Positions 6,263 to 11,518 of a stretch of DNA of 64,000 nt are shown in pieces. Under the pieces are notes generated by a model, which was given only the letters and a program-made list of their open reading frames with translations, had not been told where the DNA came from and made no database searches. This DNA comes from Dehalococcoidia bacterium (lineage in GTDB: Bacteria > Chloroflexota > Dehalococcoidia > Lucifugimonadales > UBA3495). A program made the position numbers and the translations under genes. Where the stretch lies: the NCBI GenBank assembly GCA_965232835.1, contig OZ247426.1:725339-789338 (forward strand), given 5' to 3'. Positions within the stretch are counted from its first letter, which is position 1; each line of letters opens with the position of its first letter.

Positions 6263-7412
6263 CTATGCCTCGTAGACTGTCCTGCCGCCGACGATGGTCC
6301 GCTGGACCTGGATGTCCTTGATGCCGAACGGGTCGATCTGGGTGGGGTCTTCGCCCAGCACCACCATGTCGGCCATCTTCCCCACCTCCAGGGACCCCTT
6401 CCGGTCCTCGTCGAAGGACGCGTAGGCGCTGTGCATGGTGTAGATGCGCAGGGCCTCCTCTACTGACACCTTCTGGTTTGGCCCCCATACGTTGCCCCGG
6501 CTATCGGTGCGAGTGACGCAGCTCTGGATGCCCAGCAGCGGCTGGAACGGGCCGGGCGGGTAGTCCGTGGCGCCGGTGCCCACCACGCCGTAGTCCAGGA
6601 ATGAGCGCTGGGCGAACATCCACTGCAGGCGCTCTTCACCGTAGAAGGGCATCTTTTCGCCGTGGTGGTAGACGTAGGTGCAGAATGGCGTTGCAATGGT
6701 GCCAAGATTGTGCATCTTGGTGAGAATGTCCGGGTTGACCAGCGTGCAGTGCTCCACACGGTGTCGCGGATTGGGGCGAGGATCAGCCGCCTGAGCCTTC
6801 TCGTAGGCGTTCAGCACCATCTCGATGGCCAGGTCGCCGTTGGCGTGGATGCAGACCTGGAACCCGGCCCGGTGCATCTCCATCACGTTCTCTTCGATCT
6901 CCTCGGCGCTCATGGCCAGGATGCCGTGGTCGCAGTCGCTGCCTACATACGGCTCCGACAGGTAGGCCGTGCGGGCGGCGATGGCGCCGTCGGCCACCAT
7001 CTTGATGCCGCCGAGGCGCAGCATGTCGTCGCCGAACCCGGTCTTAAGTCCCGCCTCCTGCAGAGACCGGAAGTGGGGGTGGTACATAAGAGCGTACACC
7101 CGCATGGACAGGTCGCCGGCGTCCCTACCTTCCTGGTAGGTGACAAACTCGTCGCGCACCACCCGGGCATCGTGGACGCTCGTGAGTCCGACCTCGGTCA
7201 GCATTCGGCAGATGGTGCGCAGTCCCTCGCGCCGGATCTCCGGCGTGTCCGAAGGAATGAGCCCAAACCGCACCGGCTCGATGGCCCGCTCATAGATCAC
7301 CCCGTTCAGATCACCGGTGTCAGGGTCTCGTTCCAGCCGACCGCCGAAGGGATCGGGAGTGTCCCGATCGAACCCCGCGAGCTCCAGGGCCATGCTGTTC
7401 AGGTAGTAGATG
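6263..7412 (-). pseudogene. YtcJ-like amidohydrolase (Amidohydro_3), C-terminal fragment separated from its N-terminus by an IS insertion
   Basis: ORF 6263..7393 (VCIHANGDLAIE, HRVEHCTLV, KMADMVVL) lacks the metal-binding N-terminus. The frame stays open upstream through IYYLNS to the insertion junction. Confidence 0.85.
7405..7412. repeat. 8-bp target-site duplication AGTAGATG (left copy)
   Basis: Identical octamer at 11059..11066, each abutting a terminal inverted repeat. Confidence 0.85.
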
Positions 7413-7435
7413 GGTTCTGTTGCATTTGCTGGGTA

Positions 7436-7597
7436 TTAGTCATTTTTGCAGGTGTGGCTATGACGCTGCCCTTCGCAAATGTCCGTCTCACCGCATTTGA
7501 TGCAGGTATAGCTTGGGCATTTGAAGGATAAGCCGCGCTCCACGCGATGCGTATGGTAATGTCCTTGGCCTTGAGTAGTGGTCTGTCTGGCTATCAT
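7436..7597 (-). CDS. possible 53-aa Cys/His-rich (zinc-ribbon-like) mini-protein
   Basis: ATG directly follows the transposase TAG in the same frame (GGA GGA TAG ATG). Peptide MIARQTTTQGQGHYHTHRVERGLSFKCPSYTCIKCGETDICEGQRHSHTCKND. Too short for the ORF track. No homology support. Confidence 0.25.
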   Translation of the reverse strand: MIARQTTTQGQGHYHTHRVERGLSFKCPSYTCIKCGETDICEGQRHSHTCKND

Positions 7598-8986
7598 CTA
7601 TCCTCCGAGGTCTTCTCCATAGTCGTCAGTGATACTCGTGATGCTGATAAGCGCTGGATCAAGCACTAGCGCTTCCCTGCGGTCCTCAAGCACAATAACC
7701 TGAGGCTGAAATAGCATGGCCTCACGCACGGAATCCTCGTCTGTATACGGGACATAGGCGACACGCTCCGCCCGCACTTCAGTTTCGTACAGCTGCCCTT
7801 GCTCACTGTCCCCCAACGCTGCTCCCCATCGAGGCGTCATGTACTGCTCGGCTATTCTCGGCTCGGTAGCCAGCCAAACAGCGTCGATTTCAGTAAGCGC
7901 CTTCACTGCCTCACCAGGTGCGTTGTATTGAGCGCTTTTGGCCGTGGGCATCGGGATAGCACGAGTGAGGCGGAAGCTCTCTATCGTCTGTCCTATGGGT
8001 TGCACCGTGCCGTGGAATAGCTCCAGTCGGTCAGCAGGTTCAATTTCTATTTCATATTGCGGCTCTCTATCCGGGACAGCTACCTGCACGCTGGGCTGAG
8101 ATTCTGGGTGGGGCTCAGAAGTTAGTTGCATGCTGGGCGCGATGGATTCGGTTGCCGGTTCTTTCGACCCCGACATTGCCGCGACATCCCTCCAACTCGC
8201 AAACGGAATCTCCGCCCCCGCTCTTTCGGCGGGCCGTTTGCCTTTAAGCGATTGATGCGGCCGGAAGTAATTGTAGTTCAGCACCAGCCCGTCAAGGTAC
8301 GTCTGGCCACTGTCCCGCTTCTTCAGCCCGCGCAACGTCTTGTCCCTGTCCCGTAGTGTCCCTTGTAGCCGCTCGCTCAGGTTGTTGTTGATTTCCGCCC
8401 TGATTCCCTGACTGACAACGTGCTTGACCGGCACAGTCGGAAACGCAGTCCTGATCCCCTCCTGGTACGACCGTAGCCCGTCCGTCTTTATCACGGCGGG
8501 CGGGTTCGCCGACTTTTCGCGGGCCATCGCCATAGCCGTTGCCGCTGCCCTGGTGGTTCGCTCCGGCGACAGGTAGGCCGATAGGACAAACCGCGTCTTG
8601 GAGTCCATCACGTTGAACACCCAGTATTGCTTGCCGCCCACCTTTACCGCGAGCTCGTCGGCCACCCATTCAGAGCCGGTATCCACCTTGATTCCGTCCA
8701 CAACCTCTTTGGCCCGCGCCGTATTGGCTTTCACCCAGCCGTAGACCGTGGAGGCGTCGGTTTCGCGGTCAAAGTAGTCTCCGACGTTCTCCGCAGTCCG
8801 CCGATAGGACAGCCCGTCATAGTACATGTCCACCGCCGCGCCTATCTGCTGCGGCGTAGCGTGAGGCTTGCGCTTGGGCGTGTCCACGGGCACCGTGTGG
8901 CCCTCCGGCGTTGGCCCGGGGCGTCGGCACGTCTCGCAACGCTGGCCTGTCTTGCGCTTGCAGCTTGACCCGCAGTTGTGGCTCAT
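7598..8986 (-). CDS. IS6-family DDE transposase with N-terminal Cys cluster and about 190-aa C-terminal extension
   Basis: WVADELAVKV (D), VIKTDGLRSY (D) and NNNLSERLQGTLRDR (E) in IS6/IS240 spacing. N-terminal CGSSC..CETC. Residues 271-462 lie beyond the usual transposase end. Confidence 0.85.
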   Translation of the reverse strand: MSHNCGSSCKRKTGQRCETCRRPGPTPEGHTVPVDTPKRKPHATPQQIGAAVDMYYDGLSYRRTAENVGDYFDRETDASTVYGWVKANTARAKEVVDGIKVDTGSEWVADELAVKVGGKQYWVFNVMDSKTRFVLSAYLSPERTTRAAATAMAMAREKSANPPAVIKTDGLRSYQEGIRTAFPTVPVKHVVSQGIRAEINNNLSERLQGTLRDRDKTLRGLKKRDSGQTYLDGLVLNYNYFRPHQSLKGKRPAERAGAEIPFASWRDVAAMSGSKEPATESIAPSMQLTSEPHPESQPSVQVAVPDREPQYEIEIEPADRLELFHGTVQPIGQTIESFRLTRAIPMPTAKSAQYNAPGEAVKALTEIDAVWLATEPRIAEQYMTPRWGAALGDSEQGQLYETEVRAERVAYVPYTDEDSVREAMLFQPQVIVLEDRREALVLDPALISITSITDDYGEDLGG

Positions 8987-9091
8987 TCCCGCTCCTGTGG
9001 TATTATTCTAAAATGTTCGGGGTCGAATCTACGGAATTCATCCGCTTATGTCTGGCCTACGCATTGGGAGTAGGTATGACGATGCTTGGCT

Positions 9092-9274
9092 TTATTGTCC
9101 AAAAAGCGAGAGCAGGAAAAGGGACACTCCGAATACTACACCGCCTGCGGCTGCAACGCTGAAAGCCCAAGCTGCTTCACCTTTGGATGCAAAGGCAGCA
9201 CCGCCGAACAACGCCATTATCGCACCAGATAATCCGGCTACCGCCTGAATCAGCCCTTCCAAGATTCCCGACAT
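9092..9274 (-). CDS. 60-aa glycine-zipper membrane protein (unknown function), IS cargo
   Basis: MSGILEGLIQAVAGLSGAIMALFGGAAF...GGVVFGVSLFLLSLFGQ: two hydrophobic Gly/Ala-rich helices. GGAGGGAG Shine-Dalgarno just upstream. Confidence 0.45.
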   Translation of the reverse strand: MSGILEGLIQAVAGLSGAIMALFGGAAFASKGEAAWAFSVAAAGGVVFGVSLFLLSLFGQ

Positions 9275-9340
9275 ACTCCCTCCAAGTCCCCGCCGGTAGT
9301 GTCGCCAAACTCTGACCGGCGGGGATGTTCTTTTTTGCTG

Positions 9341-10989
9341 CTACTCCGACATCAACCTTTCCTGCATCCGCCGAGCCTCCCTGCGAGGCATCCGTTTTGC
9401 AACTCCCTTGTGCGTGGGTAGGGTCAAAGGTTTGTTGGCTAGCAGGTCCTCCACACTGTATCCCTGAATCACGGGGTAGTTGCCCAAGTCGTCGCTGAAC
9501 ACCGCATTTCCGCGCTGATTCTCTACTGTCCGCATGTGGCGACTAAAACAGACGAATACTCCCGCAGTGGCGCCCACACGGCGCACCGTCGTTTCCAAGG
9601 CTTTCACCGAGTCCGGCGTAACCGCCCCTCCCTTTACTTGAACTACCGCCCATTCCGGCTTTGGCCTTTTCCCCCATCGCGTCGGCACGAAAGGAAGCAA
9701 CCCGTCCACCCCCCCGTCTGTCCCCGGAGTGCCTGGGTTGTGGAACAATCCCTCCGCGCCAATCGCCCCGCATACCCATTTCTCAAACTCGAACTTGTCT
9801 CGTTCAGCCAATGCTGCGGCATCCGCGACGTTGACTGGCACACCGCGCACCACTACATCATCAATTGTCAGTCCCTCGAATGCGTTGACTACTCGATTCC
9901 GAACCAACCCCACTGCAAAGGCCGAAAGGTCTATTCCGATCCATCGGCGGTTCAGCCGTTCGGCGGCGTGAACAGCAGTGCCGCAACCGCAGAATGGGTC
10001 AAGCACCAAATGGCCCGTGTTACTGCTTGAGTCGATGATCCGCTCAAGCAGACTCAGCGGCTTTTGGGTCGGATAGCCTAGCCGCTCGCTTGCTCGCGAG
10101 GATATTGGCCCTATGTCGGTCCAAACGTCTTGCAGAGGCACGCCCGGCATTTCGTCCAAGTATCGCTTGTATCGAGGCACCGCACCTGGTCTTGTTTGGA
10201 CAATCCGCCCTTCATCTATTAGCTTTTGCATATTCTCCTGGCTGTATCGCCAATAGCGACTGACCCCCATGACTTCATAGTGCGGATTCCCCTTAGCTGA
10301 ACCATAAGGGCCTGTTAAATCTGTCAGTTGGTACCGCCGTCCCGTCCCTTCTTCTGTGTGCTTGTAAAAGTTCTCCACATACTCGCGGTCGTGAGGGGTG
10401 TATTGTGGGTTCCACGTCCAGTCATTTCCTTTGGTATAGAAAAGCAGCACGTCGTGAATCCGACCGTGCTGCTTTCGCCCCTGCTTAGTGTCACTGTGAG
10501 CGTATGTGCGCTTCCAGACAATCTCTGCCTTGTAGTTTTGTTGGCCGAAAATGGCGTCCATCAGTAGCTTGAGGTAATGGCTGGCGGTGTCGTCGCAGTG
10601 GAGATAGATGCTTCCGGCATCAGATAATACCCGCTGCATGGGGAGCAATCTAGCCGCCATATTTATCAAGTATGGAGCAAGCCCCCCCCCCCCCGACTTT
10701 CACTGTCCACTCGTTGAGCGAGCGTAACTATGTCAGCCAGTACGCGAGAACGAGGGCCACTGCTCAATTCCTGCAAAAGATGATCTTCTTCTGCTCCCCA
10801 TTTCCAAGTGTCCTCAAACGCCTCCACCGGGCGCGTGTCAATATCCTTGTCGGCGAACGGCAGATTATAGACGCTCTTGGAGTTAAAGGGCGGGTCAAGA
10901 TATATGAGGTCAACTGAGCCACCAGGGAGGGCCAGTTCGTCGTTAAGGACGTTCAGGCAGTCGTCGCTGTACAGCATCCGGTCAGCCAT
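9341..10989 (-). CDS. beta-class N6A/N4C DNA methyltransferase fused to a C-terminal Mrr-like PD-(D/E)xK nuclease domain; reading frame broken at a G13 tract
   Basis: ORFs 10666..11007 (LIYLDPPFNS, motif IV) and 9341..10669 (VLDPFCGCGTAVHAA, motif I; DGGVDG...VVQVKGG, Mrr_cat-like) are contiguous. One extra G or two fewer G in the tract fuses them. Likely start is the ATG at 10989 after AGGAG. Confidence 0.85.
10682..10694 (-). repeat. homopolymeric tract (C13 on + strand, G13 on coding strand) inside the methyltransferase gene
   Basis: Read directly: g + 13 c + gacttt. Encodes RGGGG, then the frame ends after LLHT*. Confidence 0.9.
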
Positions 10990-11058
10990 CGCCGCGCTCC
11001 TAGACAAGAGTAACCGCGGCGATTATGATTGGCCTACCCCGCAAAAGTCAACAGAACC

Positions 11059-11066
11059 AGTAGATG
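11059..11066. repeat. 8-bp target-site duplication AGTAGATG (right copy)
   Basis: Identical to 7405..7412. Confidence 0.85.
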
Positions 11067-11518
11067 TGGCCCGCCCGGTGGGACACCATGATTGGGTGGA
11101 AGGTGCTCACCGCGTCCAGCTCCTCCCGGAAGATGGAGCGGTTCTCCGCCGTCTTGGTGTCGTCGTACTTGAAACCCTGCACCCACTGGCCCGGCGGCGT
11201 GGTTTCCGCCCGATCCCGCAGCGCCGTCTGGATGGCGGCGATGGAGGGCAGGTCGCAGTCGGCGGCCATCACGTGGCGAATGCCGCTGTTCAGCACGTGG
11301 ATGTGGGCATCGATGAAGCCGGGGAGGACTGTGCTGCCGGTCAGGTCCAGCACCTTGACGTTGGTGCCGACGAACGTCTCGACGTCCGCGTTGCTTCCAA
11401 CTCCGATGATGCGCCCGTTGCTCATGGCCACGGCCTCGGCGCGGGGCCGGCTGCGGTCCATGGTGATGACGTTTGCGTTCCTGATGACCGTATCGGCCTT
11501 GGTAGGGTTGGTTGACAT
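11059..11518 (-). pseudogene. YtcJ-like amidohydrolase, N-terminal fragment
   Basis: MSTNPTKADTVIRNANVITMD...VLPGFIDAHIHVLNSG...MVSHRAGHIY, then IS-derived WFC*. ATG at 11518 with GAGGAGG upstream. Joins in-frame to 6263..7412 after removal of the IS and one duplication copy. Confidence 0.85.

Follow-up and report, generated by a model that had tools for sequence, protein, structure and literature searches.

A poly-G tract as a candidate slipped-strand switch of a DNA methyltransferase carried by an IS6-type insertion sequence in Chloroflexota

Introduction

In the 64,000-nucleotide stretch of DNA analyzed here (the window: contig OZ247426.1 of a Dehalococcoidia bacterium, positions 725,339 to 789,338), the gene for a DNA methyltransferase, which resides in an insertion sequence (IS), is divided into two open reading frames (ORFs) at a run of 13 guanines. 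The question raised by this locus is whether the run is a genetic switch, an error of assembly or base calling, a site of recoding, or an inactivating lesion. Switching of methyltransferases by simple sequence repeats (SSRs) is an established form of phase variation, known from Type III, Type I, Type IIG, and some Type II systems (PMC5909438, PMC7383803, PMC4889913, PMC10305163). A preliminary description of the window had named a slipped-strand switch as a candidate, with a homopolymer error as the alternative, and the candidate is supported by the comparison of 13 loci reported below, in which the run extends from G6 to G20. We propose that the tract is probably a hypermutable slipped-strand contingency switch of an IS-borne, beta-class methyltransferase with an Mrr-like domain.

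The poly-G tract and the divided gene

Inspection of the sequence confirmed a C13 run on the forward strand at 10682-10694, that is, G13 on the coding (minus) strand, which splits the methyltransferase gene as the preliminary description had claimed. No other homopolymer longer than 7 exists within the 64,000 bases, the next longest being two runs of 7, and because run counts drop approximately 4-5-fold with each added base (172, 43, 4, and 2 runs of C at lengths of 4 to 7), a 13-mer is far outside chance. The upstream ORF ends with DSESRGGGGLLHT and a stop codon 13 nt, i.e., 4 codons, past the tract, which gives a product of about 107 aa (113 aa if listed from an upstream TTG), while the downstream ORF begins with INMAARLLPMQ and is identical (100%) to P0001, the public gene call of this C-terminal fragment.

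Editing the tract to G14 or G11 yielded one 549-aa ORF that opens with the ATG at 10989 and contains no stop but the terminal one, in agreement with the approximately 550 aa anticipated earlier, while editing to G12 or G15 left 16 stops; the lengths that keep this locus in frame are thus 11, 14, 17, and 20 G (congruent to 2 modulo 3). In the repaired protein, motif IV (DPPF, residues 32-35) precedes motif I (FCGCG, residues 333-337), the order that had also been predicted. The fragment produced from G13 contains motif IV and lacks the target-recognition region, the S-adenosylmethionine (SAM)-binding motif I, and the Mrr-like domain. Since motif I is missing from it, the assembled allele of the window is OFF, and the chance that this OFF state (G13) is real is at best even.

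Tract length and reading phase in related loci

The tract was compared in 13 independent loci, which comprise the window and 12 close relatives with approximately 70-89% nucleotide identity, forming a clade of at least 69% identity (Table 1). In all of them, the same alignment column and codon is occupied by an uninterrupted run of G, which measures between 6 and 20 nt. The run is in frame in 4/13 and out of frame in 9/13, with one nucleotide to be added in four of the nine and one to be removed in five, and all three reading phases are therefore represented. The preliminary description had considered that homologs might lack a repeat at this site; close homologs carry the G-run there. The tract is absent from L001 (74% identity) and from about 180 more distant loci (at most 55% identity), and scans of JGI metagenomes and IMG/VR found only relatives of at most 55% identity, all of which are devoid of the tract and served as an outgroup.

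Table 1. Length of the G-run and its frame in the 13 loci of the census
Locus	Tract	Frame	Source
Window	G13	out of frame	
L002	G17	out of frame	Dehalococcoidia chromosome from a metagenome-assembled genome (MAG)
L161	G11	out of frame	Logan assembly
L162/L163	G6	out of frame	identical in ENA and Logan assembly
L164	G20	in frame	
L165	G17	out of frame	
L166	G14	out of frame	
L167	G19	in frame	scaffold, Illumina-style name
L168	G15	in frame	
L169	G8	out of frame	41x circular chromosome
L170	G10	in frame	
L171	G14	out of frame	
L196	G10	out of frame	

Tract length differs even between close strains, a comparison that had been suggested at the outset. Over 4.4 kb, L169 and L196, two strains from separate samples whose loci lie in one and the same chromosomal context, show 99.05% identity, and the difference between G8 and G10 is one of only three indels between them, the other two not being of the homopolymer type. 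The in-frame length of this lineage would be G9, which would put each strain one step off ON, on opposite sides. Likewise, L166, which is out of frame at G14, and L170, which is in frame at G10, share 89% identity and have identical tract flanks. The former pair is distinguished by an indel of 11 bp downstream of the methyltransferase (L196 3118, L169 6409); its sequence, GCTGGGATTGC, repeats the adjacent GCTGGGACTGC imperfectly in tandem.

The wider family is large: the methyltransferase plus Mrr-like architecture gave 8,000 hits at E <=1e-10, from many phyla, plasmids, and viral contigs. Of the gene calls that make up the closest hits, those with at least 69% identity, approximately half start just past the tract site, with a query coverage of 74-80%, while hits of at most 61% identity all cover 92-100% of the query. 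The close homologs that are full length have three to six glycines (GGG to GGGGGG) at the tract site.

Selection on the gene and upkeep of the tract

Resetting the tract alone restored a full ORF of 540-557 aa with no other stop in 8/9 of the out-of-frame loci including the window, L196 being left out. Additional inactivating lesions, which had also been envisaged in the preliminary description, were thus found in none of the eight out-of-frame loci so edited, the window among them. The tract hence behaves as is expected of a contingency locus, in that the repeat number differs between alleles and, in the eight out-of-frame loci tested, alone sets the frame. Among ten tract-bearing loci and the tract-less L001, the pairwise ratio of nonsynonymous to synonymous substitution rates (dN/dS) was 0.06-0.19 on both sides of the tract, and by this measure purifying selection acts on either half of the gene. 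For most pairs dS exceeded 1 or was beyond the Jukes-Cantor limit, and since synonymous sites are saturated, the tract has persisted past synonymous saturation.

The composition of the tract points to the DNA rather than to the peptide. Each lineage has 4-6 consecutive GGG codons at this site, and because GGG makes up 31% of the glycine codons outside the tract in these genes, the runs are attributable to a DNA-level process, i.e., slippage and/or selection for mutability, and not to selection of the peptide. Just one other homopolymer of at least 8 was found in the approximately 105 kb that cover 12/13 of the tract-bearing loci (L196 was not scanned). In a neighbor-joining tree of the clade, alleles in frame, alleles out of frame, and alleles without the tract are intermingled.

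The encoded protein

The repaired protein matches the Pfam family N6_N4_Mtase (PF01555) over residues 26-358 with an E value of 1e-35 and 124.1 bits (cut-off, 26.7), and judging from this match and the motif order, the gene product is a beta-class N6-adenine/N4-cytosine DNA methyltransferase with a C-terminal Mrr-like domain. The match to Mrr_cat, at residues 398-484, is marginal (22 bits against a Pfam cut-off of 21). None of the residues D425, G427, D429, and K453 varies among 88 sequences, and Q451 is conserved in at least 90% of them. We take DGGVDG...QVK to be the D...QxK nuclease motif of the Mrr type, which is putative for the window protein; homologs also match the "inactive REase" family PF22722. 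A second G-run of the same gene, G7 on the coding strand at 9709-9715, is in frame and codes for the conserved DGGVDG of this domain.

An AlphaFold model built with the 88-sequence alignment (predicted local distance difference test score, pLDDT, 86.8; predicted template modeling score, pTM, 0.86) places the residues encoded by the tract in a short loop, 98-103, which links helix 82-97 to helix 104-121. The tract follows the catalytic motif IV and precedes both the target-recognition region and motif I, where SAM is bound. The loop differs in length across the family, and in-frame changes of its length should therefore be tolerated. The best fold matches in the PDB were EcoP15I Mod (4zcf), Helicobacter pylori Mod (6k0w), and beta-class Type II enzymes, and RsrI, MboIIA, and CcrM were also matched; matches were obtained at the level of sequence as well. 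No res helicase-nuclease gene exists beside the methyltransferase, where the element holds a transposase and a 60-aa ORF and is flanked by a split amidohydrolase gene; assignment as the Mod subunit of a Type III restriction-modification system was rejected for want of that gene. The enzyme cannot be filed under Type IIG either, and its nuclease-like domain is a putative one.

Interpretation of the tract

Mononucleotide tracts of G are regarded as potentially phase variable from a length of at least 9 (PMC5909438), and the G13 of the window exceeds this threshold. From the frame logic and the comparative pattern, both of which can be read directly from the loci, we infer that replication slippage would alter the length of the tract at a rate high enough to create mixed ON/OFF populations. 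In the ON state, a cell would methylate its specific target motif and perhaps also produce the nuclease-like domain, and a population would be a mixture of methylating and non-methylating cells, with a possible effect on regulation or defence. The switch would move along with the mobile element. The comparative evidence for such a switch can be regarded as good.

Several points nonetheless weigh against the switch. The proposal is built on assembled sequences, while phase variation is defined by heterogeneity of length within a population. Most of the homolog contigs bear names in the style of long-read assemblies, with a low coverage (2x-12x) stated for them, and the consensus of homopolymers of at least 10 is unreliable in long reads (PMC9262707). 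The in-frame share of 4/13 equals the expectation for random errors of length. The short out-of-frame tracts, G6 and G8, would switch slowly and may be locked OFF. Methylation and regulation are predictions from the sequence, and the nuclease-like domain passes the Pfam threshold by a single bit.

The foremost alternative, which we consider unlikely, is an artefact of assembly or base calling, in which the true tract is in frame (G14, for instance) and was miscalled as G13; the tract might then be a slippage-prone poly-glycine loop that plays no regulatory role. The materials leave room for such an error because the window gene fragment comes from a single 4.74-Mb contig, and its relatives from MAG chromosomes and contigs named "ctgN_Nx_l/c" with coverage tags of 2x-41x, while homopolymers of about 11 bp and more are not resolved in R10.4 consensus (PMC9262707); a ratio of in-frame to out-of-frame loci of 4:9 also fits random thirds. 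However, tracts that are short and easily called are out of frame as well, namely the G6 on which the ENA and Logan assemblies agree and the G8 of the 41x circular chromosome, and the two further indels that separate the 99%-identical L169 and L196 are not homopolymer errors. A quick scan of the window revealed no other broken gene: a search of stop-free segments for further frameshifts flagged only ordinary adjacent genes, and a truncation suspected in guaA was rejected as an artefact of the listing of ORF starts. Miscalling could explain the frame state of a locus, but not a pure G-run kept at one codon across saturated synonymous divergence.

Another possibility, which seems quite improbable as an explanation of the whole, is that transcriptional slippage or some other recoding on the G-run provides a certain amount of full-length protein at any DNA length, making the gene leaky, or that both fragments are produced and reassemble. 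Long homopolymers are known as sites of RNA polymerase slippage (review, PMC5009743). The break falls in a surface loop of the AlphaFold model, which would suit this possibility, and in the window the TGA stop of the N-terminal fragment overlaps the TTG start of the downstream frame (TTGA, 10666-10669), an arrangement that could permit termination-reinitiation in the G13 state. The overlap is, however, not kept in the other out-of-frame loci. A programmed site, moreover, needs a conserved length and a conserved direction of shift, while the runs here extend from G6 to G20 in all three phases, and programmed frameshifting was rejected as the principal explanation on the grounds that neither tract length nor phase is conserved. 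Transcriptional slippage is also best documented for runs of A/T, not of G. It could still add leakiness on top of the proposed switch. The last alternative, a decaying pseudogene in which the homopolymer frameshift is the inactivating mutation, agrees with a gene that is split in the assembly and located on an IS, among many transposase-rich loci, but it is very improbable and was rejected because every out-of-frame locus, the window included and L196 again left out, has the tract as its single lesion and dN/dS is approximately 0.1 on either side of it, and in-frame alleles are also interleaved with out-of-frame ones across the clade tree.

Relation to known systems and significance

The proposed slipped-strand switch resembles the phasevarions of Type III mod genes, such as the poly-G-bearing modH of H. 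pylori (PMC5909438), which share with it the beta-class N6/N4 fold and an intra-ORF mononucleotide tract of at least 9 that sets the frame and differs in length between strains. The window gene, in contrast, has no res partner, possesses a C-terminal Mrr-like domain, and is carried by an IS; its host belongs to an uncultivated lineage of Chloroflexota and not to the host-adapted pathogens, and its switch is a predicted one. Like cj0031 of Campylobacter jejuni, a phase-variable Type IIG enzyme (PMC4889913), the window protein combines a methyltransferase and a domain of nuclease type, putative here, in one polypeptide, and a poly-G run in the ORF, which governs expression in cj0031, would do so in the window gene, but the window enzyme is of the beta class and its Mrr-like domain, the putative nuclease, is C-terminal. 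DCM8 and DAM3 of Metamycoplasma hominis (PMC10305163), which are of Type II, are likewise stand-alone methyltransferases whose ORFs are broken or restored by repeat number; they differ from the window gene in that the repeat is a dinucleotide (TA), the species is host-adapted and has a small genome, and the genes are not IS-borne. As for class in general, a Type IIG enzyme usually belongs to the gamma class and has its nuclease at the N terminus. Phase-variable methyltransferases, for their part, have mostly been studied in host-adapted pathogens with small genomes.

Transporter ISs (tISs) with passenger genes are a recognized class (PMC9330008), and the window element is similar to them and to the IS6/IS26 family in its DDE_Tnp_IS240 transposase, its short inverted repeats beginning with GGTTCTGTTGCA, its 8-bp duplication, and the placement of the passenger within the repeats. 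Unlike a typical IS6 member, it is far longer (3.6 kb), its transposase is under the NCBIfam cut-off for IS6 and has a 200-aa extension, and the gene that it carries encodes a DNA methyltransferase and contains a presumably hypermutable tract.

The preliminary description called the setting, a mobile element in a GC-rich genome of free-living type, unusual. It is less so than that description suggested, since SSR-bearing mod genes have already been catalogued in environmental species (PMC5909438). Phase-variable methyltransferases as such are already known, and what is new is the Chloroflexota host and the IS carriage. Our literature search found no paper linking Chloroflexota or Dehalococcoidia with phase-variable methyltransferases; if the proposal is true, this would be, as far as the literature searched shows, the first such gene in Chloroflexota and the first on an IS. 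The insertion sequence would then take epigenetic or defence heterogeneity along with it as a portable trait, and bet-hedging would be extended both to a phylum that is environmental and uncultivated and to the mobile elements as such. We propose, more tentatively and with not quite even confidence, that IS6-type transporter elements of uncultivated Chloroflexota carry their own contingency locus, which stochastically switches a passenger with methyltransferase and nuclease folds. There is also a practical side: public MAG collections systematically list shortened proteins for this clade, as seen in approximately half of the closest hits, and a biological feature would therefore be mistaken for an assembly error, or the reverse, by annotation pipelines and by frameshift "quality" metrics.

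The insertion sequence and its surroundings

The features of the locus are compiled in Table 2. That the methyltransferase is IS-borne, as had been stated in the preliminary description, was borne out by three observations, namely terminal inverted repeats (GGTTCTGTTGCATTT at 7413-7427 and its complement at 11044-11058), a perfect 8-bp target-site duplication, and the restoration of a 581-codon open frame of the host amidohydrolase upon in silico removal of the element together with one copy of the duplication. Because of these observations, the element can be described as a transporter IS with the methyltransferase and the 60-aa ORF as passengers. Its G+C content, 0.53-0.60, is lower than that of the flanks, 0.62-0.66. 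Intact 533-aa amidohydrolase orthologs with 85-94% identity are present in other assemblies, the named relatives being Chloroflexota, and the arrangement is consistent with a lineage-specific insertion of the IS into the host gene.

Table 2. Features of the methyltransferase-bearing element and its flanks in the window
Feature	Position	Strand	Remarks
Interrupted host Amidohydro_3 (YtcJ-like), C-terminal part	6263..7412	-	profile match and in silico excision
Target-site duplication AGTAGATG, left copy	7405..7412	.	perfect 8-bp
IS6-family transporter IS, 3,646 bp	7413..11058	-	transposase, small ORF, and methyltransferase inside
DDE transposase, 462 aa	7598..8986	-	DDE_Tnp_IS240 at residues 106-236; PF13610, 58.9 bits (cut-off 27)
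Small hydrophobic ORF, 60 aa	9092..9274	-	between methyltransferase and transposase
GC-rich hairpin	9287..9325	-	directly 3' of the methyltransferase stop; CCCCGCCGG...CCGGCGGGG; -26.3 kcal/mol, z -2.64
Methyltransferase C-terminal frame, 442 codons	9341..10669	-	target-recognition region, motif I (FCGCG), Mrr-like PD-(D/E)xK domain (DGGVDG...VQVKGG)
Methyltransferase N-terminal fragment	10666..11007	-	likely ATG at 10989; carries motif IV (DPPF); ends with LLHT and a stop
Poly-G tract	10682..10694	-	frameshift site; codes for Gly99-102 of the repaired protein
Sigma-70-like promoter match	11022..11051	-	TTGACT, 18-nt spacer, CATAAT; 10/12 positions; directed toward the methyltransferase gene
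Target-site duplication AGTAGATG, right copy	11059..11066	.	perfect 8-bp
Interrupted host amidohydrolase, N-terminal part	11059..11518	-	profile match and in silico excision

The transposase scored 110.5 bits on the NCBIfam model transpos_IS6, under the cut-off of 125, and its C-terminal extension of approximately 200 aa (residues about 260-462; window 7598-8200, minus strand) has no Pfam match. For the small ORF, PADLOC gave no hit, and the small ORFs at the equivalent position in homolog loci are unrelated to it in sequence. The hairpin, which could be a terminator lacking a T-run or a recognition site, recurs with approximately 87% nucleotide identity in L161 (about 1832-1881) and L167 (about 6611-6659), where the neighboring non-coding DNA is otherwise unalignable. 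The promoter candidate has its -35 box within the terminal repeat of the IS and is a match to consensus only, three such matches having been found in the region against 2.3 expected. The interrupted amidohydrolase is on the same strand as the methyltransferase, and read-through from the host promoter is also possible.

An IS240-type transposase is located 0.3-4 kb away in most of the homolog loci. Because the search for the window IS ends in those loci gave no clean matching pairs, and because the neighboring transposases are 40-44% identical to that of the window while the methyltransferases are approximately 75% identical, a recurrent association, and not a single conserved IS-plus-methyltransferase unit, is what these data demonstrate. 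In L168 (1-4500 and 9667-11376), L165 (7280-8071), and L162 (12-4516), the homolog methyltransferases are surrounded by defence genes, namely those for HsdM, HsdS, ThsB_TIR, a KAP NTPase, and DndB, and by several unrelated transposases (IS66, IS1595, and IS110).

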